A stretch of 64,000 nucleotides of DNA from an uncultured Dehalococcoidia bacterium. Its GTDB lineage: Bacteria; Chloroflexota; Dehalococcoidia; DSTF01; JACRBR01. The position numbers and the translations under genes are program-made. Of this stretch, positions 18,369-49,235 are shown piece by piece. Under the pieces are notes generated by a model. The model saw only the letters and a list, made by a program, of their open reading frames with translations, did not search any database and had not been told where the DNA came from. Position 1 is the first letter of the stretch; each line of letters begins with the position of its first letter. Location of the stretch: NCBI GenBank assembly GCA_964371355.1, contig CAYJMG010000003.1:89351-153350 (forward strand). Reading direction: 5' to 3'.

Positions 18369-18382
18369 TGTTGTAGGCTCGA

Positions 18383-29400: not shown

Positions 29401-30664
29401 CATCGAGCGCGCGGACGAGCGCATGTACGAGGAGAAGAAGGCCCGCAAGGCCAACGGCACCGGCCTTTCGCCGTCGCGCACCATCGGCGACGAGCGCGCG
29501 GCCCGCATGGTGGGCGAGCTGGTGCCGCTGCTGACCTCCAGCGGCACGCTGGACGAGAAGCTGAGACTGGTGGCCCACCGGCTTTCCGTCGGCGCTGGCT
29601 ACGCCGGCGTGAACTTCGACGTGCTGGGCGAGCACGACGGCCGCACCACCACCGTCAACCAGAACGCCTTCACCAAGGCGCCCGACGAGGTGATCGAGGC
29701 ATGGAACCGCCACCAGCGCTCGGGCGTGAACGGTCGCATCAGCGACCTGCTGCGCCAGACGCGCCGGGCGGTGATCATCGATGACATCGCCGCCAGCCAG
29801 CTCGTGACGGAGGAGCAGAAGAAGCTGCTGCTGTCGATCGGCATCGTCTCGGGCATCGTGGTGCCGCTGTTCGACGGCGACGCGATGGTTGCCACCATGT
29901 CGGTCGGGAGCAAGGACGTATCAGGGTTCTCCCAGAGCGACATGCAGTTCCTGACGGCGGTCGCCGGCCAGGTATCGGCCATCATCCGCATGGCTCGCCT
30001 GGTGGAAGACCTGCGGCGGGCAACGGGCCGGCTGGAGGAGGCGCGCGACGAGACGGTCATGTTCCTGGCCGAAGCGGCCGAGGCCCACACACAGAGCGGC
30101 GGCCGGCACTTCCTGGCCACGCGCGCCATCGCCGAGGCGATCGCCACGGAAATGGGGTTCGACGAGGCGAGCGTGCGGGAGCTGGGCCAGGCGGCGGCTC
30201 TGCACGACATCGGCAAGATCCACCTGCCCGACGCCCTGCTGTCCAGCCCGGAGCCACTATCGCCACGGCTCGGCATCGATCCCGCCGGGCAGGCGTGGGA
30301 GACGCTGCAGCAGCACTGTGCGCGCGGGCGCGAGTTCCTGGCCCGCGGCAAGGGATTCGAGCTGGCGGCGATGGCGGCGTACATGCACCACGAACGCTGG
30401 GACGGCGCCGGATACCCGCAGGGCATCGCCGGCGACGCCATCCCCATCGAGGCGTCCATCATCGCGGTGGCCGACAGCCTCGACGCGATGATGACCGAGA
30501 GCCCCTACCAGCCCGGCCGGTCGCTGGACGAGGCGGTCGCCGAAATCCTCGCCTGTCGCGGGACGCAGTTCCGCCCGGACGTGGTCGACGCGTTGTCCCG
30601 CCTGTACGAGCGGCGCGCGCTGCACGGCGTCTGGGCTCAGGACGAGGGCGCGGAGGCGGCCTGA
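23423..30664 (+). CDS. Giant multi-PAS c-di-GMP signalling protein: GAF, 13 PAS, GGDEF, GAF, HD-GYP (about 2413 aa)
   Basis: A single uninterrupted ORF. 13 PAS units each begin with a (E/D)xLRxSE(x)RFRxL linker. Intact GGDEF (RYGGDEFLV) with upstream DVDGMKAVNDTYGHQAGD. HD-GYP (ALHDIGKI ... HHERWDGAGYP). The ATG at 23423 is taken as start; the track's 23303 start and an ATG at 23453 are alternatives. Confidence 0.85.
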   Translation: MNHQQTGSQGMQGLAADAALRAVVERVSGSSGGEFYRRLAAELGHVFRASYAGVGELSLDGERVSLLGAWSRDPTSTPGDFAVAATPAEPVAQGEIRLHRERVRREFPADQRLQRLFAESYLGVPITDGRGDVLGLIELIADTPVRDADAATAIVMAMAERTATEMERDQAEAALRDSEMRYRALIEDSFHLVAEVVDERFIYASSGYTDTLGYPPEDLLGGSVFELIHEEDRKAAAGELRAMLSQRRAAHFTVRMRHEQGAWRWIECTARAFRTSGGEFRTTLFSRDVTDRVKAEAALRESEELFRSLIKDLRVGVALHDADARVLVCNDAALALLGLTEEEVLGKTSYDDSWRPTREDGTIIPPNERPVPLAIATGAPVRDIVYGVHRPATGEQAWVLASAEPQFDADGRVHRVICSLNDITARLMAEQELRASEGRFRFLAENSMDVISRYDADGRCVWMSPSVTPLTGYTPEEVVGHSLAEIFANNDDGLLAGALANVQEGIESFRTTFQVRHKDGHQVWMEATNKVVRDPETADVIEIQTSARDISGRKRAEDELRESEARFRLLAENSTDIIARYTPGGRCIWVSPSIRSVTGRDPEAVIGQIPGHQIHPDDREGAVEAMRALAAGEDQRTYTFRFQHVDGHYIWLEAHARAIRDAGGALTEVQTSSRDVTARMNAEDELRESETRFRLLAENATDMISRFALDGTRLWVSPSVQAITGYSQEETMQSGPVDNVHPDDVAALQTSFRAMVDGEASRRTTFRFRHRDGRYLWLEADGRAIRDEDGRVIEIQSSARDVTARKQAEEELRESEGRFRLLAHNSTDIIGRFSPDGRCVWISPSAQPITGYTPEEIVAAAPAKFVHPDDALEVWNAFNGMVESGATQRATFRFRHKDGHYIWLEANGRAVRDDTGQVVEIHSATRDVTARMEAEDDLRESEGRFRLLAENATDMIGRFTPDGVCLWVSPSVTAVMGYEPAELIGQNLREGIHPDDLAAISRGPDWERPDSVTSLMRYRHKAGHYIWIESTSNAVRNPQTGEVIEIHNTSRDVTARKAAEDDLRESEARFRLLAENATDVIGRYAMDGRCLWVSPSVTQVLGYAPDEIVGQEPFGHIHRDDLQDNMPFRPGATDLPDQWRTTLRYRHKDGRWVWLESTNRPARDPQTGAMLEVHSTSRDVTARIEAEEQLRASESRYRSLSESSPLGVYETTADGDATYFNERAIRMAGIGLDELKGWGWSRHVHPDDRPIVEAAWRAATQDGRECTIEYRLQTPRGIIWVSSHALPIRLPDGTVEKYVGTIDNITERREAQEAVRRSEQLFRATLESTADGIIVTRPLGELMYWNNRAAEMLAIPQTVLDTHSVQAFGRYIIENAREPEALVMAFSSLPSDEPVQAGTWTARDGRMFEAFAHPLHDPSGDLLRVWSIREVTEKHQSEMALRQSEDRFRSLAEHTTDLVLGICGPGVIDYASPNWSSAMGYNPEVMIGRNALDFVHPDDLPYTLEEFERAAEGDRAVCTMLRARHGQTGEWRWCELTANFYTSDMGEQRAVVTARDVTSRKQAEDALRESEERLRTVVNSVPLVLVAVDRDETVVLAEGQGLGLLGTPTRPLVGRSIAEELENHPQVLADMRRALAGDEVSTTTVFGRIVFEAHFRPIFDEHGQPNGMIGVAYDISARVEAERMLRDSEETARALLNAPTDGAVLVDREGTILAMNETAERRFREHASKQGVGPRDFIGTCVFDIFPPDLRAQRRARNDEVFRNGQRRHFEDERDGIWTDVTVDPIRDADGNIVRLAIFSRDVTDRKRDEAALRKRSRELEALNDYLEKTSAELERSQDELREASEQLAELLDAEQARSKTDTLTGALNHGTISEAISEAIAADVALAVAMVDVDGMKAVNDTYGHQAGDQVLLAVVQAITRPGAITGRYGGDEFLVALLNADRIEAEAYRDAVGAALQGAGVVDPESGARVPVVASVGIAMYPEDADTLKALIERADERMYEEKKARKANGTGLSPSRTIGDERAARMVGELVPLLTSSGTLDEKLRLVAHRLSVGAGYAGVNFDVLGEHDGRTTTVNQNAFTKAPDEVIEAWNRHQRSGVNGRISDLLRQTRRAVIIDDIAASQLVTEEQKKLLLSIGIVSGIVVPLFDGDAMVATMSVGSKDVSGFSQSDMQFLTAVAGQVSAIIRMARLVEDLRRATGRLEEARDETVMFLAEAAEAHTQSGGRHFLATRAIAEAIATEMGFDEASVRELGQAAALHDIGKIHLPDALLSSPEPLSPRLGIDPAGQAWETLQQHCARGREFLARGKGFELAAMAAYMHHERWDGAGYPQGIAGDAIPIEASIIAVADSLDAMMTESPYQPGRSLDEAVAEILACRGTQFRPDVVDALSRLYERRALHGVWAQDEGAEAA
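24712..26985 (+). repeat. Six tandem 375-381-bp direct repeat units (PAS-domain-encoding) inside the giant signalling gene
   Basis: Unit boundaries at 24712, 25093, 25474, 25849, 26224 and 26605. They all begin ga(g/a)ga(c/g)ga..tgcg.gagagcgag...cg.ttc.g.ctgct.gc.ga.aac. The encoded PAS units share RFRHKDGHYIWLE-type cores. Confidence 0.75.
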
Positions 30665-31935
30665 CGGGCCTCGGCCGGCTCCGGCGCGTCACTGCCGTGG
30701 CGGGTGAGGTTCACGGCCGCCCACACGGCGAACGTGACCCAGCCCCACACGAAGAACCACCACCCGTTGTCGCGCAGCCACTCCGTACCGGGGCCATCGA
30801 TGCCCGGGAAGATCAGGCCACCGCCGAGGAAGGCGATGATGACGTAAGAGGCCGTGTGGGCGGCAACGAGAGACGCCACGAGGAGACGCTGTCCGCTGAG
30901 GAGACCGAAGGGGACGATCCAGAGATAGTGGTAGGGCGCGCCGTCGTTCACCATCACGAAGAGCACCGCCAACACGCCGGCGATGGACGAATACAGCGGA
31001 GCGCGGCGGTAGATGAGCCAGGCCGCCGCGGCCAGCGTCGCCGCATATGCGGGCCACTCGCCGTGGTCGATCTCGAAGCGCAGCACTGTCGCCGATCCCG
31101 GCACGAATCCGAGGAAGCGGTCGATGATCAGCGGCGGCCCACCCAGCGTCGGGAACGGTGAGTAGTAGCCCTCCACGCCGTCGTACACCCGCAGCGGCGT
31201 GCTGCCGAACGCGAGCACGTACGCCAGGACCGCGCCCCCGACGACGGCGCCGGCCACGATGAGGTACTCCACCCTGCGTTCCGCGCGCAGCCTCGCCAAC
31301 AGCAACGGAATCAGGAACGCGGGCCACAGCTTCTGCAGGATGCCGAGCGCCAGCAATCCGGCCGACTGCAGGCGACTGCCCCCGGCGTTCGCCTCGGACA
31401 GGACGAAGACCGCGGAGACGGCGAAAAAGACCGAGATGACGTCGAACTGACCGTGGTAGATGGTCGCGAGGACGGGGAACGGGCACACGGCGTAAAGCAG
31501 TCCCGTGCGCACGCCCTCGGCCCTCCCCCACAGACGCGACGCCGCATGCGCGAGCAGCAACGCCGTACCCGCGTCGGCCAACGCCTGCGGGACACGGACC
31601 GCCGTGAAGAACGGGATGGGTGTCGCGTCGGCTATGAGCTTGCACACCGCCAGGATGTACATCTGGAACGGCAGGTACGGGTGCGGGAAGGGGCCGAAGG
31701 CGTAGATGTCGCGCCCGTGCAGGACCTCGTTCGCGGTTTTCTCGTAGTTGTTGATGTCGGTCAGCCAGAGGCCTTCGGGCTCGCGGTACACCAGCAGCGG
31801 CACGAACCGCACGATCAACGCGACCGCGGCGACCACCGCGAACTCGCGGCCCGGCGGCACGTCCGGCCGCAAGAACAGCAGCCACACGAAGGCGATGCTC
31901 GCCATCACGATCCACATGAACATGAAGAGAATCAC
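30637..31935 (-). CDS. Polytopic membrane protein, GT87/DUF2029-like (candidate lipid-linked-sugar-dependent glycosyltransferase)
   Basis: 432 aa with about 11 transmembrane helices and a DUF2029-like arrangement. The 3' end overlaps the giant gene's 3' end by 28 bp (convergent). Confidence 0.5.
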   Translation of the reverse strand: MILFMFMWIVMASIAFVWLLFLRPDVPPGREFAVVAAVALIVRFVPLLVYREPEGLWLTDINNYEKTANEVLHGRDIYAFGPFPHPYLPFQMYILAVCKLIADATPIPFFTAVRVPQALADAGTALLLAHAASRLWGRAEGVRTGLLYAVCPFPVLATIYHGQFDVISVFFAVSAVFVLSEANAGGSRLQSAGLLALGILQKLWPAFLIPLLLARLRAERRVEYLIVAGAVVGGAVLAYVLAFGSTPLRVYDGVEGYYSPFPTLGGPPLIIDRFLGFVPGSATVLRFEIDHGEWPAYAATLAAAAWLIYRRAPLYSSIAGVLAVLFVMVNDGAPYHYLWIVPFGLLSGQRLLVASLVAAHTASYVIIAFLGGGLIFPGIDGPGTEWLRDNGWWFFVWGWVTFAVWAAVNLTRHGSDAPEPAEARQAASAPSS

Positions 31936-31983
31936 GGCGGCAGTGTAGGTGACCGAACGCCGGTGTCGGCCCGATGCTTGACG

Positions 31984-33354
31984 TCAGCGCGCCCTGCGGT
32001 GCGCGCGCTGCTTGCGCCAGATCGAGAATCTCCGGCGCAGGCCGAAGCGCGCCTCGTAGTACGAGCGCGAGACGAACCAGTCGAGCGAATGCAGCGCGAT
32101 CGGCAGGCGCTGCTCGTTGCGGCGCACGGGCGAGCTTGACGCGCCGGTGCAGTAGTCGATGAGCGGCGCCAGCGTGCGCTCCCACGTGTACTCCTCGCGG
32201 ACCGCTTCGACGTTGCGGCGGCAGGCCGCGCGGTAGCCCGCGTCGCCCGCCAGCCGGTCGAGCGCGACCGTGAGCGCATCGAGGTCGCCCTCGGGTACCG
32301 CCGCGCCGAGCCCGCGCGCCTCGACCATCTCAGCCACCATGTCGCCCTGCGTGCAGACCAGCGGCAGGCCGGCCCAGAAGCAGTCCAGGTAGCGCACGCG
32401 GAACGAGAACCGCGTCTCCAGGCTGTCGTAGTACGTACAGACGGCGACGTCCGACTCCAACAGGTACTGCTGGGTGTCCTCGTTGTTCGCCCACGTGAAG
32501 TTGAAGAAGACGTGCGTATCCAGGATTCCCAGCTCGCGGCAAAGGTCGAGCGCACGCTGGGTCGTGCCGCCGCCCAGGCCCTGCAGCGTCTTCGCGCCGT
32601 AACTGTCCGGGTGCTCGGTGCCCATGAAGAACAACCGCATGTTCGGATGCCGGTCCTTCAGGCGAGCGACGGCACGGAGCAGCAGGCCCATGTCGTACCA
32701 GTCGACGATGATGCCGTTCCAGATCATCACGAAGTCGCCGCGCCCGATGCCCGGCCACACGCCGCGCAGCAGCGGCACGCCCGCCACGGGCGGCGCCGGC
32801 CGGATGCCGATGGGCGCGATGCGGATCAGACCCTCCAGCGTGGGATCGCTGTCGAACGCGCGGGGCGTAATGAGCCCGGCCGTGCCCATGATGCCTGCAA
32901 TGAGGTCGCGCTGCCGCACGTTCGAGCAGAGGATTGTGTCGGACGCGGCGATCTGCGTGATGAGATCGCGGCGCTTCATGTCGATCCAGGCGCGGCGGTG
33001 CGACTCGCCAGGGTCGCGCTTCGTCATCTCCACCCACTCCGTGATGAATGGAGTGAACAGGTCGAGCACGAGGCGCGTGTTCCCCGCGAACGGCAGCATC
33101 TTCAGTGGGAAGCGCGTGCTGATGACGATGTCGTGCTCGCGCGTCAGCCGCCCGATGTTCGCGCCGTCGTGGCGGGTGAAGGCGAAGGGCACGGTCGCCG
33201 GGTCGAGGTCGGCCGGCGTCGTGCGCGGGATGGCGAGCGTCACCTGCGCGCCCGGGACACGCTCCTGCAGCACCCGCGCCATGTGGTAGCTGCGGATGCC
33301 GCCGCTGGCCATCGTGCCGCCCACCGTCGTGTGGCCCAGGACGAGGATCTTCAT
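31984..33354 (-). CDS. GT4-like (GT-B fold) glycosyltransferase, paralog 1 of 3
   Basis: 456 aa with a C-terminal GT4-type Rossmann layout (IWNGIIVDWYD..., ADVAVCTYYDSLETRFSFRVRYLDCFWAGLPLVCTQGD, final YTWERT). The EX7E motif is degenerate. ATGA overlap with paralog 2. Confidence 0.6.
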   Translation of the reverse strand: MKILVLGHTTVGGTMASGGIRSYHMARVLQERVPGAQVTLAIPRTTPADLDPATVPFAFTRHDGANIGRLTREHDIVISTRFPLKMLPFAGNTRLVLDLFTPFITEWVEMTKRDPGESHRRAWIDMKRRDLITQIAASDTILCSNVRQRDLIAGIMGTAGLITPRAFDSDPTLEGLIRIAPIGIRPAPPVAGVPLLRGVWPGIGRGDFVMIWNGIIVDWYDMGLLLRAVARLKDRHPNMRLFFMGTEHPDSYGAKTLQGLGGGTTQRALDLCRELGILDTHVFFNFTWANNEDTQQYLLESDVAVCTYYDSLETRFSFRVRYLDCFWAGLPLVCTQGDMVAEMVEARGLGAAVPEGDLDALTVALDRLAGDAGYRAACRRNVEAVREEYTWERTLAPLIDYCTGASSSPVRRNEQRLPIALHSLDWFVSRSYYEARFGLRRRFSIWRKQRAHRRAR

Positions 33355-34715
33355 TGCGCCGCCGAATGCCGCGGGGCCAGTCGCGCTCGCACCCGCTGAC
33401 GCAGGCGGAAGCGCAGGAAGTGGTACGACTCCGACAGCAGCCAGTCAGCGCCGAGGCGTGCGATCGGTAGCAGGCGCGCATTGTGCAGCGCGGCCCGCGG
33501 TGCGCCCTCCCGGCAGTAGTCGATCAGCGGCCTCAGCGTCTCCTCCCACGCGAACGACGGCCGCAGCGCCTCGACGTTGCGCCGGCACCCTGCGCGGAAG
33601 GCGTCATCGGAGGCCAGCCGTCGCACCGCGGACACGATCGCGTCCACGTCGCGTTCGGGGACGCTGACGCCAAGCCCCCGCTTGTCGACCATCTCGGACA
33701 CCACGTCGCCGCGCGTCGACACGATGGGCAGTCCTGCCCAGATCAGGTCGAGGAAGCGCACGCGGAACGAGAACCGCGTCTCCAGGTTGTCGAAGTACGT
33801 CGCGACACCGGCGTCCGCGTCGGCCAGATAGCGCTCCGCGGTCTCGTCATCGGCCCAGCCGAAGTTGAAGAACACGTGCGTGTCCAGGATGCCCAGCTCC
33901 TGCGCCAGCTCGTACGCCGCTCGCACCGCCCCCCCGCCCATCCCCCGGAAGCGGCCGGCATCGAAGCTGTGGGGGTGCTCCGTACCCAGGAACACCAGCT
34001 TTACGTCGTCGCGCTCGCGGCTGAGCCGATGGACAGCGTGGATGAGCGACGCGGCGTCGTACCACTCGATGATGGTGCCGTTCCAGAGCAGCAGCTTGTC
34101 GTCGGGGCGGATGCCGGGCACCGCGCCCTTCACGCCGCCACGCGCGGGCAGTGGCCGCGGCCGCACGCCGTACGGAGCGACGGCCAGCACGCTGCCCAGG
34201 CTGGTGTCGCAGTCGTACGTGTGGGCGCTGATGAGGCCCAGCGTACCCATGATGCCGGCGTACAGGTCGCGCTGGCGCTCGTTCGCACACAGGACGAGGT
34301 CGGCGAGGGCGAGCTGCAGCAGCGTGTTCTTGCGCCGCGGCTCCAGCCAGATGTTGCGATACGGCGGGTCTTGGGTGTTCTTCGAAAGTTCGAGCATCTC
34401 GGTGTAGCCCGGCGTGTACATGTCCAACACGATGCGCGTATCCGACGCCGCGGGCAGCAGCTTCAACGGAAACTTGGTCGTCACCACCACGTCCGAGGAC
34501 TTCGTGAGCGAGATCATGTCGCGCTCTGAAGGACGCACGATCTCGAAGCACTCCCGCGCGGGGTCGACATCGCACGGGGTGTGCGGCGAGATGGCCAGCG
34601 TGACGCGGGCATCGGGGAGCTGCTGTTGGAGCACGCGGGCGACGTGGTAGGCCCGGATGCCGGGGGCGGCCATCTTCGTGCCGATAACGGCGTTGGTGAG
34701 GATGGTGACGCGCAT
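33351..34715 (-). CDS. GT4-like (GT-B fold) glycosyltransferase, paralog 2 of 3
   Basis: 454 aa from the ATG at 34715, with the same architecture as paralog 1 (RVTILTNAVIGTKMAAPGIRAYHVARVL ... ETRFSFRVRFLDLIWAGLPIVSTRGD). The start overlaps paralog 3's stop (TAATG). Confidence 0.6.
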   Translation of the reverse strand: MRVTILTNAVIGTKMAAPGIRAYHVARVLQQQLPDARVTLAISPHTPCDVDPARECFEIVRPSERDMISLTKSSDVVVTTKFPLKLLPAASDTRIVLDMYTPGYTEMLELSKNTQDPPYRNIWLEPRRKNTLLQLALADLVLCANERQRDLYAGIMGTLGLISAHTYDCDTSLGSVLAVAPYGVRPRPLPARGGVKGAVPGIRPDDKLLLWNGTIIEWYDAASLIHAVHRLSRERDDVKLVFLGTEHPHSFDAGRFRGMGGGAVRAAYELAQELGILDTHVFFNFGWADDETAERYLADADAGVATYFDNLETRFSFRVRFLDLIWAGLPIVSTRGDVVSEMVDKRGLGVSVPERDVDAIVSAVRRLASDDAFRAGCRRNVEALRPSFAWEETLRPLIDYCREGAPRAALHNARLLPIARLGADWLLSESYHFLRFRLRQRVRARLAPRHSAAQ

Positions 34716-36058
34716 TACTGGCTCAGCACCACGCCGACCGCACGCTGGGCCGCCCACTGCGCCCACGCCCCGGCCAGCATCGCCGTGCGCTTCCACTTCG
34801 GGAGGGCGCTGGTGCGCGGGTCGCGGCAGAACTCCACGAGGTCGCGCAGGGCGACCGTCCAGCTCATCTCCTTGTTCGCCTCGCGGATGTTGCGGCGGCA
34901 CTCCTCGTAGTAGTCGGGGTCGCCCAGCAGGCGCAGGATCGCGCCCGCGACGGCGTCGACGTCCTGCTGCGGGACGGCTTCGCCCATCCGCTTCTCGCGC
35001 ACCATACCGGCCAGCACGTCACCCTCCGTGCAGATCAGCGGCACCTCGGCCCAGAACACGTCGACGAACCGCGTGCGCAGCGAGAAGTGCGTCTCCAGAT
35101 TGTTGAAGTAGGTGCAGACGGCAAGGTCCGCCTCGAGCATGTAATCCTTCATCCGCTCGTACGGCACCCAGGCCATATCGAAGAAGACGGTGTTGTTGTA
35201 GAGCCCCAGCTCGTTAGCCAGTTTCAGGGACTCCATATAGCGCAGGCCCAGGCCCATGCCCTGCAGCCCGGGGTAGGCGCCACCCACGAACACCAGCTTG
35301 ATGTCGTCGCGCTCCTCCCGCACCTTCGCCATCGCCTGCAGCAGCGTGATGGGGTCGTACCACTGCAGAATGCCGCCGTTCCACATGATGAGCCTGTCGG
35401 TCTCCTTGATGCCCGCGTATACGCCCTTCAGCGCCGGCTTCCCCTTCGGGCCCAGGGGGTCGGGGCGGATCCCATGCGGCGCCACGCCGATCATCCGCTT
35501 CAGCGAGGGGTCGTCGTCGTAGGCGATGGGGTCGATCAGGCCGAGCGCGATCAGCGCGCCGATGTAGTAGTCACGCTGGCGATCGTTGGCGACGCTGATG
35601 TAGTCGGCGGAGACAAGCTCGGCGCCGACGCGGCGGCGGGCGCCGGCCATGTACGTCTCACGGTAGCGCTTGTTCTTGCGCAGGTGGTCCCGCGACTGCT
35701 CCATCCACTCCAGGAAGTAAACGGTGTAGTAGTCGAGCACGAACGTCTTCCAGGGGAAGGCGGCGATGGCGTGGGGCGGGTAGTCGTTGGCGATGATGAT
35801 GTCGTGCTGCATCATCAGCGCCAGCAGTGAGCGCCAGTTGTAGTAGGCGACGCTGTAGGGCAGGCGAGAGGGGTCGTCAGGCGGGTCGCTGCCCTTCTGC
35901 AGCGCGAGCGTGATCTCGGCCTCGGGCAGCTCCTGGGCCAGCACCTCGACCATGTGGCGGGTGCGGATGCCCGGGCTCGACATCTGGGCGCCAAAGGCCG
36001 ACCGGCTGACGACGAGGATGCGCTTCCGCCCGCTGCCGTTGCTCTTCGCCATCAGCAC
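34715..36058 (-). CDS. GT4-like (GT-B fold) glycosyltransferase, paralog 3 of 3
   Basis: 447 aa, more divergent, with the same layout (KRILVVSRSAFGAQMSSPGIRTRHMVEVL ... ETHFSLRTRFVDVFWAEVPLICTEGD). Confidence 0.6.
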   Translation of the reverse strand: MLMAKSNGSGRKRILVVSRSAFGAQMSSPGIRTRHMVEVLAQELPEAEITLALQKGSDPPDDPSRLPYSVAYYNWRSLLALMMQHDIIIANDYPPHAIAAFPWKTFVLDYYTVYFLEWMEQSRDHLRKNKRYRETYMAGARRRVGAELVSADYISVANDRQRDYYIGALIALGLIDPIAYDDDPSLKRMIGVAPHGIRPDPLGPKGKPALKGVYAGIKETDRLIMWNGGILQWYDPITLLQAMAKVREERDDIKLVFVGGAYPGLQGMGLGLRYMESLKLANELGLYNNTVFFDMAWVPYERMKDYMLEADLAVCTYFNNLETHFSLRTRFVDVFWAEVPLICTEGDVLAGMVREKRMGEAVPQQDVDAVAGAILRLLGDPDYYEECRRNIREANKEMSWTVALRDLVEFCRDPRTSALPKWKRTAMLAGAWAQWAAQRAVGVVLSQ

Positions 36059-36094
36059 CGCCCTGCCACCGGTTCGCGCTCCGCGGCCTCAGCG

Positions 36095-37189
36095 TCAGCG
36101 CGCCGGCCACTCGATGCGGGAGACAATGTTCGCCCAACTATACATATCGAGGAACGGCGCGGGTACGTTACCGGACTTGACGTGGCGGGGCGCCGCCAGC
36201 GCGGCCGCGAAAGCATCCCAGCCGTCCTCGAAGGACAGCAGCTCCCCGCAAACCGCGCGGTCAATGCCCTCCGCACCCATGGTCGTCGAAACGACAGGCG
36301 TGGCGCAGGCGATGCTCTCCAGGATCTTCAGCCGCGTCCCGCCGCCGCTCACGACCGGCACGGCCACCGCGTCCGCCGCGTTCACGTAGGGCGCCATCGC
36401 CGGGACCGCGCCCGTGTACCGGAGCCGCGGGTGGGAGTACAGCCATGCGGCCTCCTCGTGGTTCTTGCCCGCGACCACGAACTGGTAGTCGAGGCCCGCA
36501 CGGTCCAGCCGCGGCAGCAGCTCCTGGTGGATGATGCGCAGGGCTTCCCCGTTGGGGGCATAGCCGAGCTGCCCGAAGAACAGCAACATCTTCGTGCCCT
36601 CGCCGATCGCGAGCTGCTCGCGGACGCGCGCCCCCGCCGCAGCGTCAGGATGCACGACCGCAGCGTCGACGCCGTTCGGCACCAGCTGTATCTTCGCCGC
36701 AGGCACGCCGCACCGTCGAAAACGCTCGCCGTCCTCCGCCGAGACGACGAAGATGCTCGACCCAAGCCGCGCGATCAGCCGCTCGTACAGGGCGACAAGC
36801 CGCCAGGCGCGCGATCCCGTGCTGCGGAAGCGGTCGCCCTCGACGTTCGGCGCGTCGAGCACCAGCGGCACGCCCAGCCGCCGGGCGAGGTACGCGGCGT
36901 GCAGCCCCGGCCACGGATACTCCGTCACAATCACATCCGGCCGCTGGTCCCGCGCGATGACGAGCGCGCGGCGCAGGAAACCGGCATCGAGCACCTGGTG
37001 GCGGCGGCCAGGTGGAGTCGTCTCGTAAAGGCGCACCCGCAGGTCGTTCGCGGCGTTCGCCGGAGAGCGCGGCGTGAAGAGCAACAGCTCGTGCACGGGT
37101 GCCAGGTGCTTCAGGAGGTTGTAGGCGCGGACGCGCCCGCCATCGTCGGGCGGAAAGATCGGGTACGGCACGATCATCGCGATGTTCAT
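36095..37189 (-). CDS. Glycosyltransferase family 4 (glycosyl transferases group 1)
   Basis: 364 aa from the ATG at 37189 (MNIAMIVPYPIFPPDDGGRVRAYNL...). C-terminal GT4 motifs. ATGA overlap with the upstream GT2. The track's 108-codon N-terminal extension is an Arg/Ala-rich artefact. Confidence 0.8.
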   Translation of the reverse strand: MNIAMIVPYPIFPPDDGGRVRAYNLLKHLAPVHELLLFTPRSPANAANDLRVRLYETTPPGRRHQVLDAGFLRRALVIARDQRPDVIVTEYPWPGLHAAYLARRLGVPLVLDAPNVEGDRFRSTGSRAWRLVALYERLIARLGSSIFVVSAEDGERFRRCGVPAAKIQLVPNGVDAAVVHPDAAAGARVREQLAIGEGTKMLLFFGQLGYAPNGEALRIIHQELLPRLDRAGLDYQFVVAGKNHEEAAWLYSHPRLRYTGAVPAMAPYVNAADAVAVPVVSGGGTRLKILESIACATPVVSTTMGAEGIDRAVCGELLSFEDGWDAFAAALAAPRHVKSGNVPAPFLDMYSWANIVSRIEWPAR

Positions 37190-38121
37190 CTGCGCGCCCT
37201 CGGCCCCGTGCGGCCCATTACCCCGGCTACAAGGCCCTCGACGCGACCCAGCGCCTCGGCCGGGTTCCCCTGCGCGAGCGCCTTCAGGCTCTCGTACGCG
37301 ACGAGCCCGGGCTGCGCGGCGAGCGCGGTGATGCGGCGGACGCCCCGGAGACCGCGCCGGACGAAGCGCAGCCGGTTGCGCGCGAAGTAGTACGCCTGCG
37401 CCCGTGTCAGCCGGTTCGAGCCGCGCACGCCAGCCGCGGCCGACACCATATGCCGCACCGCGGGCCCTGGCGCGAGCCAGCACTCGGATCCGGCGAGCCG
37501 CACGCGCTCGCACAGGTCAGCATCTTCAAAGTAGTGAAAGTACGCCTCATCGAGGCCGCCGAGCCGCTCGAAGGCTTCGCGGCGGATGGCGATGGCGGCG
37601 CCCGTGATGAAGTCAACGGCCGCCTCCGTGCGAGGCAGCTCACGCGCACGGAAGCCCATGTGCCGCGTGTAGCCCAGCCAGCGGTTCAAGCGCCCGCCGG
37701 CGAACCACACGCGGCCGGGGTCGTCCTCGTACACCACCGGCAGGCCGGCGACGGCCGCCCGTGGATGCGTCTCGAACAAGACGGCCACGGTCTCCAGCGT
37801 CCCCGGCTCGATGGCGACGTCGTTGTTCAGCAGCAGCACGGCCCCTGCCCCGGCCGCGAAGGCCCCGCGGGCGCCGGCGTTACACCCGGCGGCGTATCCG
37901 CCGTTTTCGGCCAGCCGCACGATGCGCACGCCCGGGCAGGCGGAACGCGCTGCGCCTTCGTCAAGGTCGCCCGGCCCGTTCTCCACGAGCACCACCGCAG
38001 CCGGCCCGCCCCCCGCGGCGGCGATGGAGCGCAGGCAGGCAAGCGTATCGGCGAAGCCGCGCCAGTGCACGACAACGATGCCGAAAGGACCTGGCACCCG
38101 GCCTGAGGCAGAATCGCTCAC
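37186..38121 (-). CDS. Glycosyltransferase family 2
   Basis: GT-A fold with GIVVVHWRG, LVENGPGD, a DxD-like NNDVAIEP, and FHYFEDADLC. Confidence 0.8.
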   Translation of the reverse strand: MSDSASGRVPGPFGIVVVHWRGFADTLACLRSIAAAGGGPAAVVLVENGPGDLDEGAARSACPGVRIVRLAENGGYAAGCNAGARGAFAAGAGAVLLLNNDVAIEPGTLETVAVLFETHPRAAVAGLPVVYEDDPGRVWFAGGRLNRWLGYTRHMGFRARELPRTEAAVDFITGAAIAIRREAFERLGGLDEAYFHYFEDADLCERVRLAGSECWLAPGPAVRHMVSAAAGVRGSNRLTRAQAYYFARNRLRFVRRGLRGVRRITALAAQPGLVAYESLKALAQGNPAEALGRVEGLVAGVMGRTGPRARR

Positions 38122-38179
38122 GCGGCGTTAGTATACGTGCGACCGACCTCGCCGCATCGTCGAAACGGGACGACAGGCC

Positions 38180-38977
38180 GTGGGCAGAGACTACACACGC
38201 TTCCTGGTGCTCGGCGAGGGGCGCACAGGGTCCAACCTCCTCGTCCAGGCGCTGAACTCTCACCCTAACGTCGTGTGCTATCGCGAAGTGTTCAATTGGA
38301 CGCACAAACGGATCGACTACAACGTCGAAGGCTATGAGGATCTGAGCCGCAAGGATGTCCGGTTTCGGGCCGATGACCCGTTGCGCCTACTGGACGAGCG
38401 CATCTTCCGTGACTACCCCGCGGATATCGCGGCCGTCGGCCTCAAACTCCACTACGGCCACGCGTTTGGCTTCGCGGGTGTTGAGGAGGCACTCATCGAG
38501 GATCAGGCGCTTCGCGTGGTGCACCTCAGACGGCAGAACATGCTCCGTACATTGGTCTCACTCCGCGTCGCCGAGCAAACCGGCGTGTGGGAGCATGACG
38601 AAGACGCCTCCTTGCGTGTCCGCCTACGGCGGCTGGCCGGACGAGTCTCCACCCGCGTGAAGTACGGTGACCCGGCGCGTGTGCGCCTGACCTACGAGCA
38701 GTGCAACCAGTTCTTCATCGTGCACGCTCTCCAGGGCCAGCGTTATGACGAGCTCTTCGCGGCACATCCGGTCCTGCAGGTCAGGTACGAAGACCTCGCG
38801 AAGAACCGGGACAGCGTCCTGGCCGGCGTGCAGCGCTTCCTTGGTGTCCCGTTCGTCGACCTGAAGGTAACGTTGCAGCGCCAGTCCCGGACGCCCTTGC
38901 GAGAAACGATCGTCAACTTCGACGAACTCCGGGCCGCCTTCGCCGGGACCAGTGCGGAGGCACTGTTCGATGAGTGA
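38180..38977 (+). CDS. Sulfotransferase (Stf0-like, PAPS-dependent), paralog 1
   Basis: N-terminal 5'-PSB-like P-loop FLVLGEGRTGSNLL and a 3'-PB-like region (VVHLRRQNMLRTLVS). Followed by a tandem paralog with an 8-nt overlap. Confidence 0.65.
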   Translation: MGRDYTRFLVLGEGRTGSNLLVQALNSHPNVVCYREVFNWTHKRIDYNVEGYEDLSRKDVRFRADDPLRLLDERIFRDYPADIAAVGLKLHYGHAFGFAGVEEALIEDQALRVVHLRRQNMLRTLVSLRVAEQTGVWEHDEDASLRVRLRRLAGRVSTRVKYGDPARVRLTYEQCNQFFIVHALQGQRYDELFAAHPVLQVRYEDLAKNRDSVLAGVQRFLGVPFVDLKVTLQRQSRTPLRETIVNFDELRAAFAGTSAEALFDE

Positions 38978-39815
38978 CGGCTACGTCCGCTTCATCATCA
39001 CGGGGGACGCGCGTACCGGGTCGACGATGCTGGCCCAGGCGCTCAACACAAATCCGGCCGTGCGGAGCCTTCGCGAGATCTTCCACCATTGGAAGGATTT
39101 CCTGGACTACGGGGTCGAAGGGTACGACCCGTTCGACACGGAAGCGCTGCGGCTTCGGAACGACGATCCCGTGCGCTTCCTGAGAGAACGGATCTTTTGC
39201 GGCTATCCCGAGCAGATCGGTGCGGTCGGCTTCAAGTACATCTACGGCCAGATGTGGGGATACGATGACTTGACGGACTTCCTCAAGAATGACGCCGAAC
39301 TCCACGTCATTCACCTGAAGCGCCGGAACTGGCTCCGCGCACTCGTATCCGTGCGGATCGCCGAGCTGTCAAGCCGCTGGCTGGATGACGAGAGCGCAAC
39401 GCCGCGGCGAAAGCGGCGCTTGCACGTGCGCGCGGCCTCCGCACTGCTGCATCCCCGGCGAGCGCTTGGTGACCTGAGGCGCCGGATCGCGCCGCCCCCA
39501 CCGGCGCCCAAACCCAGGCTCACGCTCACGCCCGAGGAGTGCGAACAGTGGTTCAAGCGGACTCAGTGGGAGGTCGGGCGGGTCGATGAGCTGTTCGCGC
39601 GCCAGCCCAGGCTCGATGTCTTCTTCGAGGACATGCTCGCCGACCGTGCCGGTGCGTTCTCGGCCGTGCAACGCTTTCTGGAGGTCGAACCAGTGGACCT
39701 GGCGGTGACTTCGCGGCGGCAGAATCCAGAGCCGCTGAGCGAACTCCTGACCAACCACGACGATCTGCGCGCGACGTTCACCGGCACCGATTTCGTCTCG
39801 TTCTTCGACGAATAG
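38970..39815 (+). CDS. Sulfotransferase (Stf0-like), paralog 2
   Basis: FIITGDARTGSTMLAQAL P-loop, VIHLKRRNWLRALVS, and a C-terminus (DELFARQP...FEDMLADR...VQRFLEV) co-linear with paralog 1. Confidence 0.65.
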   Translation: MSDGYVRFIITGDARTGSTMLAQALNTNPAVRSLREIFHHWKDFLDYGVEGYDPFDTEALRLRNDDPVRFLRERIFCGYPEQIGAVGFKYIYGQMWGYDDLTDFLKNDAELHVIHLKRRNWLRALVSVRIAELSSRWLDDESATPRRKRRLHVRAASALLHPRRALGDLRRRIAPPPPAPKPRLTLTPEECEQWFKRTQWEVGRVDELFARQPRLDVFFEDMLADRAGAFSAVQRFLEVEPVDLAVTSRRQNPEPLSELLTNHDDLRATFTGTDFVSFFDE

Positions 39816-39968
39816 CGCACCTCTGCTCGCGCTTAGCTCGCAAGTTGACGCCTTATCTGACTCGTCTCATTGACGAGGCACCGCGGGTGTGGTCTGATTG
39901 ACTCCCGCCCTGCTGTCGCGCCGCGTCCTGCTGCGCGCCGGCCGTCTGCGCTTTCAGGGGGAGTTCAC

Positions 39969-41747
39969 ATGGCAGGCCGGGTGGCGGCCCCGGCTCGGGA
40001 GCGAAGCACCGGCCCGGCGCCGCTCAACTGGGACGAGGCATCACCGTCCGCGATCGCGGACCTCGCGGCGCGCGCCCTCCGCTACTGGCCGCTCGCGCTC
40101 GTAGCCCTTGTGGCCGTGGCCAGCCGGCTGCGTTACATCGCGGGCTTCGACGGCGCGTACGGCTCCGGCGACGCGCACCTGCTGCTCACGAAGGCGCTCT
40201 TCATCGAGCGCGGCGACCTCCGCCCCGATGCGTCGCTGGGCGTGAGTTCCAACATCTTCGCCACGCCCCCGCTGGTCCCGATGCTGCTCGGCGGCTTCGC
40301 GCGCGTCACCACGGTCCCGGTCGATCACGCGCCTCTCATCCTGGGGCCGCTGGTCACCGTCGCCGGGCTGCTGGCGCTGTACGCCGTCGCAGCCCGCGCG
40401 TTCGATCGCACCGTGGCGATAGCGGGCGTGCTGCTGGTGGCACTGCTGCCGCGCTTCTCGTTCGACTCGACCGAGCCGGACAAGGTGGCATACGTCCTGA
40501 GCTTCTTCCTCATCGCGCTGTTCTTCCTGTACGAGGGGCAGCGACGGCCCGCACTGCTGCTGGCCGCGGGCGCGTTCATGGGGCTCAGCGTCTTCTCGCA
40601 CACGACGGCGTACCTGTTCCTGCCCGTGTACCTGCTGTCGCACGTGGCGCTCTCGCGCGGCCGCATGCGGAAGGTGCTCTCGCCGTACTTCCTGGCCTCC
40701 TGCGCGATCGTGCTGGCCTTCCTGGCCGCCTATTCCGCCCTCGACGCGCGCTTCGACCCGACGAGCGACACGACGGCGACCGGCGCGGCACTGGAGCCCG
40801 GCGCCGGCGCGGGCCGGCCGACAGAGGACGCCCGCCTCCCGGAGTCCACCCCTGCCGGGCGGACCCGCCGCTTCGTGCCCCAGGTCGTCGACGAGTACAT
40901 AGACAACGTGAGCAGGCTGGCGCGCGACGGCTTCCAGCGGAGCGCGGGCGACCTGTACCTCGACGGCATCCGCGCGCAGATCCTCGACCCCGTGTATGTG
41001 TTGGCGATCGGCGGATTCTGCGTCGCGGCGGCGCTGGCGCTGCTGCGGCGGCGGATGGAGGCGGTGCCGCTCCTGCTGTGGATGATGATCGTGACCGCCG
41101 GATTCGCCATGCAGTATCCCGCCGCCTCGCACACCAGCCGCTACCCCTCGTACGTCACGCCGGTGTTCCTGATCATGGCCACGTTCTTCGTGGTCTGGGC
41201 GGCTCGCCAGATCGCGGCGCGGGCCGGCGCGCGCGAGGCGATGGCACTGGCGCTGGCCGCGCCCTTCGTGGCCTACGCTGCCTTCTCGTACGTGACGGCG
41301 CCCGACCCGGGGCTGCGCAAGCTCTTCGCTGGCCACCACGAGCTAGCCGCCTACGTCTCCGACAACGATCTGCTAAGTGAGGATCGGCAGATCCTGTATC
41401 TGGGGTGGCCGTCGTTCACGTTCGGCCTCGCCAGGAGCGAGGCTGATGTCGATTGGCTGCACAGCTTCGGCTGGCGGCGCGTATCGCTGGCCGGGTACGA
41501 CGCCGACTATGTCGCCCAGAATAACGTCCGCTACTACGCCTACGACGACCTCACCGACGACTACTTCGGCTCGGCGAAGCAGGTGCTGGCAAACCTCCAG
41601 CGTGACTTCGAGATGCGTCCGGTGTTCACGTACTGCACCGCCGGCTCGGCGGCGTCGCACGCGGAGGCGGACGGCTGCGCCGGCCACGTCACGCTGTACG
41701 AAGTGGGCGCGCGGAAGGCGCAGCCGGCGGACGCCGTCACTCCTTGA
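39969..41747 (+). CDS. GT-C fold membrane glycosyltransferase (PMT/ArnT-like, polyprenyl-phosphate-sugar dependent)
   Basis: 593 aa from the ATG at 39969. About 11 transmembrane helices, with an early loop containing the DG/acidic motif (IAGFDGAYGSGDAHLL) typical of GT39/GT83-like enzymes, and a large C-terminal soluble domain. Confidence 0.6.
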   Translation: MAGRVAAPARERSTGPAPLNWDEASPSAIADLAARALRYWPLALVALVAVASRLRYIAGFDGAYGSGDAHLLLTKALFIERGDLRPDASLGVSSNIFATPPLVPMLLGGFARVTTVPVDHAPLILGPLVTVAGLLALYAVAARAFDRTVAIAGVLLVALLPRFSFDSTEPDKVAYVLSFFLIALFFLYEGQRRPALLLAAGAFMGLSVFSHTTAYLFLPVYLLSHVALSRGRMRKVLSPYFLASCAIVLAFLAAYSALDARFDPTSDTTATGAALEPGAGAGRPTEDARLPESTPAGRTRRFVPQVVDEYIDNVSRLARDGFQRSAGDLYLDGIRAQILDPVYVLAIGGFCVAAALALLRRRMEAVPLLLWMMIVTAGFAMQYPAASHTSRYPSYVTPVFLIMATFFVVWAARQIAARAGAREAMALALAAPFVAYAAFSYVTAPDPGLRKLFAGHHELAAYVSDNDLLSEDRQILYLGWPSFTFGLARSEADVDWLHSFGWRRVSLAGYDADYVAQNNVRYYAYDDLTDDYFGSAKQVLANLQRDFEMRPVFTYCTAGSAASHAEADGCAGHVTLYEVGARKAQPADAVTP

Positions 41748-42432: not shown

Positions 42433-42435
42433 CGA

Positions 42436-43119: not shown

Positions 43120-43292
43120 CCCTAACAGAGCGCCGCATTATACGGCCAGCGCGTCAAGAAGCTGCGCACCGCCCGCTGGGTCATCGGGCCGTTGACAGGC
43201 CGCCGGCCGGGGTGCGCGGCGGGCGCCCCGGGGGCGGTATCATCGGCCAACGGGCGGCGCCGATACTTATGCGTCCGGAACAAGGCGAAGGT

Positions 43293-44639
43293 ATGCGCCC
43301 GAACGTCAAGCAGTTCATCGAGTTACTGAGCCAGGCAACGGATCTGCCGCGGCCCATCGTCGATGTCGGCTCGATGTATGTCCTGGGCCAGGAGGCGTAC
43401 GCCAGCCTGCGCCCGTACTTCCCCGACTCACACTACGTGGGGCTCGACATGCGGCCCGGGCCGGGCGTCGACGCGCTGGGCAGCATCCACTACCTCCCGG
43501 TCCAGAGCGAAAGCGCGGGCACGCTGCTGGTGCTGGACACGCTGGAGCACGTCCTGGACCCGATCGCCTCTATGCAGGAGGTGTGCCGGGCCGTGCGACC
43601 GGGTGGCGTGGTCGTGATCTCGTCGCACATGAACTTCCCCGTACACACCCACCCCTCCGACTACTGGCGCTTCACGCCCATGGCCTTCGACTACCTGATG
43701 CGCCCGCTGGCCACCCGCTTCGTGTTCATGCAGGGCGACCCCGAGAACCCGCACAACGTGATGGCCGCCGGCATGAAGGCCTCGTCCGACGGCCACGCCG
43801 AAGCCGGCTTCCGCGCGGCGGTCCGCCAGGTTCAGGCGCGCTGGCCCGAGAACAGCTACGGCGGCCCGCTGGTGCAGAACGAGCCGCTCGTCATCGACCT
43901 GAGCCAGCGCGGCTGCGAGCGCGACCTGCCGGAGCTGGTGGCGGGCCGCACCATCGTGCAGCGCTTCACCTGCACGCGCGACGGACTCTCCCGCATCGAT
44001 GTGAAAATGGCGAACAAGATCGGCGAGAACTTCCGCCACGTCGTGTTCCGCCTGTTCGAGGCGGGGCACGTCGACCAACCGCTGACCTCGCACCGCGTGC
44101 TGGGCTGGCACGTGGAGGAAGACACGTGGCTCGCTGTGCCCGTGCCCGCGCAAGCGCGCTCGGCCGGCAAGACCTACGTCCTCACGGTGGAGTCGCCCGA
44201 CGGCGCCGCGGGCAACACCGTGAGTGCCAAGAGCAGTGCCCTCCCCGACGCGTACCCGGGCGGCGAGCTGCAGGTGGACGGCGCGACGATCCTCGGCGCG
44301 CTGGCCTTCCAGACCTACTGCTGGGGGCCCGAGGTCGCGGCCGGCGACGTGCAGACGGCCGAGGACATGCTCCAGCGCGCGCCCTCCGCCGCGGGCACGC
44401 TCGCGGCGATCGACGCGAAGCTGGCGGTACTGGCCGACGCTCAGTGGGCCCAGGTGCGCGCGCTGGCGGCCGAGCTACGCGCCGAGTTGGACGCGATGCG
44501 CGAGCAGATGCGACAGAACCATGCCTCGCTCATGGCGCTGGAAGAGCGGACGCTCGCTGCATCGACCGAGAAGCTGATTGCGCGCGCGGTGAAGGAAAAC
44601 CCGGTCGCACGGGCCCTGCGCCGCCCGCGCGGGCAATAG
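43293..44639 (+). CDS. Methyltransferase-domain protein with a C-terminal helical extension
   Basis: ATG at 43293 with an AAGGCGAAGG RBS. Methyltransf_11-like core (LVLDTLEHVLDP, VRPGGVVVISS). About 200 extra C-terminal residues end in a coiled-coil-like segment. Confidence 0.6.
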   Translation: MRPNVKQFIELLSQATDLPRPIVDVGSMYVLGQEAYASLRPYFPDSHYVGLDMRPGPGVDALGSIHYLPVQSESAGTLLVLDTLEHVLDPIASMQEVCRAVRPGGVVVISSHMNFPVHTHPSDYWRFTPMAFDYLMRPLATRFVFMQGDPENPHNVMAAGMKASSDGHAEAGFRAAVRQVQARWPENSYGGPLVQNEPLVIDLSQRGCERDLPELVAGRTIVQRFTCTRDGLSRIDVKMANKIGENFRHVVFRLFEAGHVDQPLTSHRVLGWHVEEDTWLAVPVPAQARSAGKTYVLTVESPDGAAGNTVSAKSSALPDAYPGGELQVDGATILGALAFQTYCWGPEVAAGDVQTAEDMLQRAPSAAGTLAAIDAKLAVLADAQWAQVRALAAELRAELDAMREQMRQNHASLMALEERTLAASTEKLIARAVKENPVARALRRPRGQ

Positions 44640-44664
44640 CCGGCGCCGCTCCCGGGCGAGCGGC

Positions 44665-48978: not shown

Positions 48979-49130
48979 GCGGAGGCCACTCCCATCATGC
49001 GGCGTGTGTCGTATGTGGCGGGGGAGGCCCGGAGGCCGCGGCCAGTATAGCCGGTCAATGATGACGGACACGTAAACATTTCCGTGGTCGCGCATGCGCC
49101 ACGAGTTAGATGCTGTGCAATTTCCAGCCC

Positions 49131-49235
49131 GGCACTCTTACGGACACTGCCCCGTGGGCGAGATGAACTGCGCGGGCAGCAGCTGGTCGCCGGCGTCCAC
49201 CGCCCCGTCCCTGTCCACGTCGAAGATCACCAGTC
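49131..49235 (-). pseudogene. Orphan 3' fragment of a dockerin-like module (third copy; gene remnant)
   Basis: The minus strand encodes ...RRLVIFDVDRDGAVDAGDQLLPAQFISPTGQCP* ending at the TAA (49131-49133). It is co-linear at DNA level with the 3' ends of the genes at 47122 and 50617. The upstream reading frame has no propeller or TSP3 similarity. Confidence 0.45.

Follow-up and report, generated by a model that had tools for sequence, protein, structure and literature searches.

The 64,000 nucleotides analyzed here (the window) come from an uncultured Dehalococcoidia bacterium of the phylum Chloroflexota (GenBank assembly GCA_964371355.1, contig CAYJMG010000003.1, positions 89,351 to 153,350) and carry a run of 12 contiguous glycan genes, the island, at 30637-44639, together with a five-gene exporter and acylation module at 5235-9813. 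Judged by gene content and by conservation in relatives, island and module probably make up one locus (we put the probability at about 0.6) for a cell-surface heteropolysaccharide, which this bacterium would assemble by a route dependent on an ATP-binding cassette (ABC) transporter. The product is most likely a methylated, sulfated, polyprenol-linked polysaccharide exported by a Wzm/Wzt pair. An earlier reading made from the letters alone (the sequence-only reading) had taken the island for one dedicated glycan pathway, and that view is supported: the island encodes cytoplasmic glycosyltransferases (GTs) of the GT-B and GT-A folds, two sulfotransferases, membrane enzymes of the GT-C type, and several S-adenosylmethionine (SAM) methyltransferases. 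Its genes are listed below, with strand in parentheses, length in amino acids (aa), and Pfam matches.

30637-31935 (-): small polytopic GT-C, 428-432 aa; PMT_2 27.6 bits (cutoff 26.1), about 8 hydrophobic segments
31984-33354 (-): GT4-fold paralog A, 456 aa; Glycos_transf_1 41.2 bits, C-terminal half only
33351-34715 (-): GT4-fold paralog B, 454 aa; Glycos_transf_1 and Glyco_trans_1_4 matches
34715-36058 (-): GT4-fold paralog C, 445-447 aa; Glycos_transf_1 46.8 bits
36095-37189 (-): canonical GT4, 364 aa; Glyco_transf_4 74.4 bits, Glyco_trans_1_4 68.4 bits
37186-38121 (-): GT2 (GT-A fold), 294-311 aa; Glyco_tranf_2_3 55.6 bits, Glycos_transf_2 54.3 bits
38180-38977 (+): ST1, sulfotransferase of NodH type, 265 aa; Sulfotransfer_3, Stf0 and Sulfotransfer_1 above cutoffs
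38970-39815 (+): ST2, paralog of ST1, 281 aa; Sulfotransfer_3 28.4 bits against a cutoff of 27 (marginal)
39969-41747 (+): large GT-C, 592 aa; PMT_2 41.7-41.9 bits, about 9 hydrophobic segments, then a soluble tail of about 140 aa
41737-42432 (-): MT1, SAM methyltransferase, 231 aa; Methyltransf_11 41.9 bits
42436-43119 (-): MT2, SAM methyltransferase, 196-227 aa; Methyltransf_11 43.3 bits
43293-44639 (+): MT3, 448 aa; methyltransferase, beta-sandwich and long helix

Conservation of the cluster and the exporter module

Contigs from relatives were obtained through exact-sequence look-ups of homologs of the sulfotransferases and of the GT4-fold paralogs, and orthology was assigned by tblastn. 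Five are independent of one another: L003/L004 (SRR25528443), L005/L006 (SRR31065121), L007 (DRR654820), L014 (the NCBI metagenome-assembled genome, or MAG, GCA_021731085.1) and L027 (JGI 3300038649). All five (L003, L005, L007, L014 and L027) have this cluster, its genes being one-to-one orthologs of those in the window, and this comparison of gene neighborhoods upholds the island as a unit: because the cluster recurs in five independent relatives, the gene arrangement lies far beyond chance. A further metagenome scan returned 10 mostly short contigs, with no additional synteny.

Orthologs of paralogs A and C are 60-70% and 60-61% identical, respectively, to the proteins of the window (L003, L005, L007 and L014 for each), and those of paralog B, which occupies the middle of the triplet, about 48-50% (L005, L007, L014). 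Identities are 62-69% for the canonical GT4, 52-57% for the GT2, 68-74% for MT1, 78-88% for MT2 and 54% for MT3. ST2 has orthologs at 54-58% (L005, L007, L014, L027) and ST1 at 46-49% (L003, L005); in the other relatives the first of the two sulfotransferases best matches ST2, at 40-43%. The large GT-C (51-54%) always follows two sulfotransferases (L005, L007, L014, L027).

The module contains five genes in a tight operon, with an 11-nucleotide (nt) overlap between Wzm and Wzt, as in L005, and an ATGA overlap of the methyltransferase start with the acyltransferase stop.

5235-6023 (+): Wzm-type ABC-2 permease, 262 aa; ABC2_membrane 52 bits
6013-6903 (+): Wzt-type ABC ATPase, 296 aa; ABC_tran
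6908-7540 (+): hexapeptide-repeat acetyltransferase; Hexapep, nearest NCBIfam models of the EpsC, CysE and WcaB type
7544-8815 (+): membrane acyltransferase Acyl_transf_3; PF01757 101.6 bits, at least 8 hydrophobic segments
8812-9813 (+): MTup, a fourth SAM methyltransferase, 333 aa; Methyltransf_11 and Methyltransf_12, 48 bits

For the permease, the nearest NCBIfam model is that of Wzm/RfbD, the permease of mycobacterial galactan export; for the ATPase it is TagH (203 bits), followed by galactan Wzt (185 bits), and Pfam finds no Wzt_C carbohydrate-binding domain in the 296 residues. In L003 and L005, orthologs of Wzm (59-60% identical) and of Wzt adjoin the cluster; the Wzt orthologs are 62-75% identical. 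The hexapeptide acetyltransferase has orthologs in L003, L005 and L027, the Acyl_transf_3 enzyme in L005 and L027 (with three copies in L007), and MTup in L003, L005 and L027 (45-53%). In L003 a block of methyltransferase, hexapeptide acetyltransferase, Wzt and Wzm genes abuts paralog A. In L005 the block, here MTup, Acyl_transf_3, two Hexapep genes, Wzt and Wzm, comes directly after MT2, and in L027 MTup, Acyl_transf_3 and Hexapep stand beside the cluster before the contig ends. The five genes of the window's module match these in kind and in internal order. Since it adjoins the cluster in relatives, its separate position here points to a rearrangement in the lineage of the window. The earlier suggestion that the Wzm/Wzt module serves the same polymer is therefore strongly supported by contiguity in L003, L005 and, in part, L027, and the linkage of an ABC exporter to the cluster in turn speaks for a chain assembled on polyprenol. 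A CE4 deacetylase at 14997 had been suggested as a possible contributor as well; it resembles peptidoglycan deacetylases of the PdaB/PgdA kind and is never found beside the cluster in the relatives' loci, and we have dropped it.

L007 is the closest relative. Its citrate synthase is 92% identical to that encoded in the window, against 38-88% for the island proteins, so the island changes more quickly than housekeeping genes, which is usual for loci of surface glycans. The set of membrane transferases varies. The window and L007 both encode the small GT-C, at 38% identity, and L005 and L014 lack it. Conversely, all five relatives encode, between GT2 and ST1, a polytopic protein with a "DDFWF" motif after its first membrane segment and no Pfam match, which may be an unclassified GT-C-like transferase or polymerase.

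Polytopic protein, 485-496 aa: L003 8340-9818, L005 8418-9878, L007 8467-9924, L014 3799-5289, L027 777-2255

It is absent from the window, where only 58-110 nt are available at the GT2/ST1 position. Such variation in the membrane transferases would suit an optional decoration of the glycan after export.

More distant homologs place the same families in comparable settings. In Mycetocola saprophilus (L012), homologs of the GT4-fold paralogs occur with Wzm, a Wzt that carries Wzt_C, RmlA, Acyl_transf_3 and a GT2-GT4 fusion; in L013 they lie beside rmlABCD, a WecA-family gene (PF00953) and a methyltransferase 44% identical to MT2. Both are classical ABC-dependent wall-glycan loci. The contig L016 (ERZ795105 NODE_61, 10001-20861) combines three sulfotransferases with a GT4, a GT2 and two PMT_2 GT-C genes, and includes an Arn-like set (DegT aminotransferase, GT2, formyltransferase, WbqC). 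Because L016 joins both families, the association of sulfotransferases with PMT_2 GT-C enzymes recurs outside the lineage. Other distant sulfotransferase homologs are found outside glycan loci (L015, L028, L029).

Enzymes, gene boundaries and flanking genes

The identification of two sulfotransferases holds both for family membership and for the residues expected to bind the sulfate donor, 3'-phosphoadenosine-5'-phosphosulfate (PAPS). ST1 scores 39.9 bits to Sulfotransfer_3 (PF13469, cutoff 27), 25.8 bits to Stf0 (PF09037, cutoff 22) and 23.4 bits to Sulfotransfer_1, and is 42-43% identical to ST2. A review gives as defining features a Lys or Arg in the PAPS loop, a Ser in the 3'-phosphate helix and a central sheet, with an R-x-G motif in NodH (PMC11625862). 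In an alignment of 24 family members that includes both paralogs, the 5'-phosphosulfate loop R15-T16-G17-S18 is invariant or nearly so, as are R118, N120, R123 and S127. The family profile, searched against the PDB, finds the "LPS sulfotransferase NodH" structure 9vki with E = 3.3e-24; the loop R15-T-G-S18 aligns to "ARSGS" of 9vki, and R118, N120 and S127 align to its R, N and S. The match to Stf0 (1tex) has E = 1e-4, and for this reason we prefer "NodH-type" to the label Stf0-type used in the sequence-only reading, which was right as to the sulfotransferase family and less apt as to subtype. Sulfation by ST1 and ST2 is a predicted activity. A HMMER search of 1.84 billion cluster representatives returned 4,566 relatives at E<=1e-3 and 114 at E<=1e-30, so the close subfamily is small. 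A genome scan with a narrow sulfotransferase alignment matched four genomes, none of which contains the full cluster. Two sulfotransferase homologs come from MAGs labelled Dehalococcoidia.

All three tandem paralogs that had been read as GT4-like match Glycos_transf_1 in their C-terminal halves (41-47 bits), and Pfam likewise confirms the separate GT4 and GT2. Paralogs A and B are 49% identical, and C is 36-37% identical to either; paralog A shares a cluster, at 90% identity or more, with MBI5290201.1, annotated "MAG: Chloroflexi/Chloroflexota bacterium". PDB sequence searches with paralog A, the canonical GT4, the GT2, the large GT-C and MT3 returned nothing useful, and paralog A was placed only through structure prediction. 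Its AlphaFold2 model, built on a 43-sequence alignment, has a predicted local distance difference test score of 92.9 and a predicted template modeling score of 0.91, and shows a complete GT-B fold. A C-terminal helix at residues 412-455, basic and aromatic and rich in Arg, Trp and Phe, has in this model the composition expected for peripheral membrane binding. Foldseek ranks ManT (7qsg), the methylmannose-polysaccharide mannosyltransferase of M. hassiacum, first, with MshA, GlgM, BshA, WaaG, PimA and PimB' scoring indistinguishably from it (E-values from 1e-13 to 1e-11 for ManT, MshA, GlgM, BshA, WaaG and PimA). The modeled fold is of the GT4 type, and the structural ranking does not indicate a sugar specificity. 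Measured against the canonical E-x7-E signature, the paralogs have an invariant E313 followed by invariant R319, R321 and D324, with no second Glu at +8.

The NCBIfam model nearest to the canonical GT4 is TIGR03087 (stp1), at 111 bits and below cutoff. Those nearest to the GT2, whose start is probably at 38097 or 38070, are MftF, the rhamnosyltransferase model TIGR01556 and GlfT1, again all below cutoff. Hydrophobic-segment analysis finds no C-terminal membrane helices in the GT2, which makes it unlike the polyprenyl-phosphate sugar synthases GtrB and ArnC.

Both GT-C enzymes match PMT_2 (PF13231), a broad family whose members include ArnT-like enzymes that modify lipids and glycans. The polytopic topology and PMT_2 match of the large enzyme at 39969 agree with its earlier description. 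The gene at 30637, by contrast, had been called GT87/DUF2029; it has no match to PF09594 even at E<=10, PMT_2 being its sole match, and we reject an identity as a GT87 enzyme of the PimE type. Neither GT-C matches the protein O-mannosyltransferase family proper (PF02366) or PMT_4TMC at E<=10, which leaves a GT39 protein O-mannosyltransferase identity unsupported for both. The earlier emphasis on a PMT-like enzyme, and through it on a protein O-glycan, is not supported.

The count of three methyltransferases in the island, two of them tandem paralogs, is confirmed, MT1 and MT2 being 60% identical. With MTup the locus has four, all candidates for a chain-terminating modification; MT3, which has a beta-sandwich and a long helix in addition, could be the enzyme that modifies the chain end.

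Genes were called from G+C content by codon position (true genes here show a third-position value, GC3, of 0.79-0.94, and GC1 above GC2) and from candidate starts. The island boundaries given before are exact, running from the stop codon of the leftmost minus-strand gene to that of the rightmost plus-strand gene. The 13 genes counted between them are, by contrast, 12, because codon-position GC and Pfam back only that number; the earlier list itself sums to 12, and an independent gene caller reports the same 12 on an identical copy, ENA metagenome contig ERZ13692934 NODE_154. As for the junctions, ATGA overlaps (33351-33354 between paralogs A and B, 37186-37189 between GT4 and GT2), a TAATG junction (34713-34717, paralogs B and C) and an 8-nt overlap (38970-38977, ST1 and ST2) are present as described, and MT1 and MT2 are separated by 3 nt (42433-42435). 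No GTGA junction exists among the island genes, and the tight packing is broken by gaps of 48 nt (31936-31983), 36 nt (36059-36094) and 153 nt (39816-39968). A terminator-like hairpin at 44645-44664 (+), 6 nt past the MT3 stop, has a 7-pair stem (6 G-C) and a T-rich tail; it is a consensus match only, and such sites are as frequent in the region as shuffling predicts. A sigma-70 promoter scan found no sites. The whole window has 62-73% G+C, without a compositional island, and base composition does not indicate recent acquisition from a foreign source. GC3 is 0.79-0.80 in the ST1 and ST2 genes and 0.86-0.94 in neighboring island genes, and the 38-40 kb bin (G+C 0.646) is among the lowest of the island region.

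On the left, a citrate synthase gene precedes a gene at 23303-30664 (+) for a 2453-aa protein with about 12 PAS domains followed by GGDEF, GAF and HD-GYP, which is convergent with the island and shares 28 nt with the small GT-C gene. The cluster is flanked by orthologs of this protein in L005, where identity is 70% across the C-terminal part that aligns, and in L014 (52%), and by a GGDEF protein in L003. The association may reflect control of the glycan by cyclic di-GMP (c-di-GMP), or mere conserved synteny. The right flank encodes TfoX_N, DinB and ketoacyl synthase proteins, and just right of the island, at 47122-49137 (-) and 50617-52617 (-), lie genes for secreted proteins with thrombospondin-type-3-like repeats and dockerin modules, one fused to a glucose/sorbosone dehydrogenase domain, the other of lower G+C. 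In L008 (10906-12787), a Dehalococcoidia MAG, a homolog of ST1 and ST2 has two dockerin-domain proteins on one side and, on the other, an ABC-2 transporter pair together with an alkyl-sulfatase-like gene; sulfotransferase and dockerin genes are close to each other in the window and again in L008. Tad/Flp pilus genes (TadE, TadG-like, RcpC/CpaB) occupy the right end of the window, at 60186-63998. ARAGORN and Rfam detect a single RNA gene in the window, a tRNA-Thr(CGT) at 18383-18457 (-).

Proposed pathway and competing explanations

From the gene content, families and folds, motifs and linkage described above we infer an order of steps, with the sugars, the modified positions and the acceptor left generic. 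A phosphoglycosyl transferase encoded elsewhere would prime the chain on polyprenyl phosphate. The GT2, which resembles WbbL and GlfT1, and the canonical GT4 would add linker sugars, and the three GT4-fold paralogs, held at the membrane by the basic amphipathic C-terminal helix, would add the repeat part. Still in the cytoplasm, ST1 and ST2 would transfer sulfate from PAPS to two distinct positions, as many as four SAM methyltransferases would O-methylate sugars, and the hexapeptide and Acyl_transf_3 enzymes would attach acyl groups. The lipid-linked polymer would then leave through Wzm/Wzt. Outside, the PMT_2-type GT-C enzymes would add side-chain sugars from polyprenyl-phosphate sugar donors or link the glycan to its final acceptor.

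Several observations weigh against a Wzm/Wzt-exported, sulfated polysaccharide. The module lies 20.8 kb upstream of the island, with unrelated genes in between (acyl-CoA dehydrogenase, APH kinase, GNAT, CE4, MgtE, GH3, tRNA-Thr, SDRs, TetR and citrate synthase). No initiating transferase (WecA, TagO or WbaP) is encoded in the window or in the loci of close relatives; such enzymes are commonly encoded elsewhere in the genome. Nucleotide-sugar genes are missing from the window, and no ligase (LCP, WaaL, or Wzy_C/O-oligosaccharyltransferase) appears among the window genes scanned with Pfam. PAPS supply genes (cysC, cysDN) are found neither in the 64 kb nor in the relatives' loci retrieved. The locus has no partner GT2 of the ArnC, GtrB or Ppm1 kind to make a polyprenyl-phosphate sugar; the donor synthase for the GT-C enzymes would have to be encoded elsewhere, because the sole GT2 present is WbbL/GlfT1/MftF-like and lacks C-terminal helices. 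Finally, the Pfam scores of ST2 and the small GT-C are only just above cutoff.

The exported polysaccharide could be something more particular, an undescribed anionic wall polymer, heavily O-methylated, that draws its charge from sulfate esters rather than from phosphate or uronic acids and serves as a functional analogue of teichoic acid in a host that we take, as a member of the Chloroflexota, to be monoderm. We offer this extension tentatively and think it doubtful. The conserved operon order of two sulfotransferases followed by a GT-C would allow one variant, in which sulfate is placed first on a polyprenyl-phosphate sugar that the GT-C then delivers outside. The conserved PAS-GGDEF-HD-GYP protein next to the island could bring production under c-di-GMP control.

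An alternative destination for the glycan is protein: sulfated O-glycans on an S-layer protein, pilin or secreted protein, with the GT-C enzymes either glycosylating Ser/Thr or transferring the finished glycan. Both GT-C enzymes do match PMT_2, genes for secreted dockerin and thrombospondin-type-3 proteins and for a Tad pilus lie nearby, and a precedent exists in Geobacillus, whose S-layer O-glycans are exported by an ABC transporter and capped by O-methyl groups. PMT_2, however, is broad enough to take in ArnT-like lipid and glycan transferases, no match to PF02366, PMT_4TMC or a Wzy_C-type O-oligosaccharyltransferase was obtained, and the variation of the GT-C set among relatives suits optional decoration of side chains better than an essential protein transfer. 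We regard this explanation as improbable, and a PMT-made protein O-glycan as less likely than a polyprenol-linked polysaccharide exported by Wzm/Wzt.

An equally improbable product is a membrane-anchored lipoglycan or glycolipid, comparable to lipomannan, lipoarabinomannan or sulfated glycolipids, instead of a polysaccharide that is free or bound to the wall. Actinobacteria use GT-C enzymes to lengthen lipoglycans, and the structural neighbors of paralog A include GT4 enzymes similar to PimA, PimB and MshA. No wall ligase is found in the window, and relatives of NodH and Stf0 sulfate glycolipids (PMC11625862). Against this, the closest models to Wzm and Wzt are TagH and galactan Wzt exporters of polyprenol-linked polymers, WecA-family and rml genes accompany the paralogs' distant homologs, and the window holds no genes for lipid-anchor biosynthesis.

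It is more improbable still that the glycan is made and not sulfated, ST1 and ST2 being inactive, using another donor, or acting on an unrelated small-molecule acceptor. The absence of PAPS genes from the window, the 1.4 bits by which ST2 exceeds its Pfam cutoff, the GC3 of both genes below that of their neighbors, and the distant homologs outside glycan loci (L015, L028, L029) would all fit. The PAPS-loop and 3'-phosphate motifs are nonetheless invariant in 24 members, both paralogs included, the order of two sulfotransferases and a GT-C is kept in four of the four relatives whose contig extends that far, and in the distant L016 three sulfotransferases are once more found together with GT4, GT2 and two PMT_2 genes. 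A cytoplasmic methylated polysaccharide like the mycobacterial methylmannose polysaccharide (MMP) is rejected because the locus conserves both an exporter and GT-C genes.

Relation to known systems and significance

The exported, polyprenol-linked polysaccharide that we favor has its parts, singly, in several characterized systems. In mycobacterial arabinogalactan synthesis (WecA, WbbL, GlfT1/GlfT2, Wzm/Wzt, Aft/Emb), as proposed here, a GT2 and cytoplasmic polymerizing GTs work on a polyprenol carrier, Wzm/Wzt exports the chain, and GT-C enzymes extend it outside. The window, however, has no GlfT2-type and no Emb/Aft-type enzymes, all similarities to the mycobacterial proteins fall below equivalog cutoffs, and it encodes instead, in another phylum, GT4-fold backbone enzymes, sulfotransferases and four methyltransferases. 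The polymannans of E. coli O8/O9a (WbdA/B/C, WbdD, Wzm/Wzt) likewise use several GT4 enzymes and ABC export, and the long helical extension of MT3 recalls WbdD, a methyltransferase/kinase terminator with a coiled coil. The rhamnose-rich wall polysaccharides of streptococci and lactococci provide an ABC-exported polymer with GT-C decoration outside and a decorating set that varies by strain; unlike them, the window locus has no GtrB-like synthase or flippase, its rml counterparts are seen only beside distant homologs, and predicted sulfation takes the place of glycerol phosphate.

For sulfation, one comparison is synechan of Synechocystis PCC 6803, whose xss genes include dedicated sulfotransferases, two in both systems (PMC8205485), and sulfotransferases are likewise part of the polysaccharide loci for the sulfated capsules of Vibrio sp. 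KMM 8419 and Cobetia marina (PMC11641403, PMC11766843). The synechan apparatus, that of a diderm, includes an outer-membrane OPX export gene (PMC8205485), in contrast to Wzm/Wzt in the Chloroflexota locus, and neither heavy methylation nor GT-C enzymes belong to the synechan and capsule systems. Rhizobial NodH, LpsS and KpsS and mycobacterial Stf0 belong to the same fold family (PF13469/PF09037) and share the R-x-G-S loop, although identity is only about 25-30%, their acceptors are Nod factor, lipopolysaccharide, K-antigen and trehalose, and their genomic setting is different. Mycobacterial MMP synthesis (ManT, MeT1, MeT3) similarly combines a GT4 with small SAM methyltransferases, and ManT is the top structural match of paralog A; its score, however, is inseparable from those of MshA, GlgM and BshA, and MMP is cytoplasmic, unexported and unsulfated.

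Sulfated polysaccharides are well documented in animals, algae and cyanobacteria and have been reported from few other bacterial genera (PMC8205485, PMC11625862); the papers on the Vibrio and Cobetia capsules (PMC11641403, PMC11766843) also describe them as scarce in bacteria. A survey of MAGs found a PF13469 sulfotransferase in neither of two Chloroflexi genomes (PMC9723792), and our full-text literature searches found no account of such a locus in Chloroflexota. As far as gene content tells, the building blocks and the logic of the pathway are familiar, and the predicted polymer is of an unusual kind for bacteria, though not without precedent. Unusual, too, is the way in which an ABC exporter, a pair of NodH-type sulfotransferases, four methyltransferases and GT-C enzymes come together in a new phylum. 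Very few biosynthetic loci that carry sulfotransferases have been defined so far. If the proposed pathway is correct, it would bring sulfated glycans into another phylum and link them to another mode of assembly, give glycoengineering two new candidate carbohydrate sulfotransferases and several sugar O-methyltransferases, and offer a handle on the poorly known chemistry of the Chloroflexota envelope.

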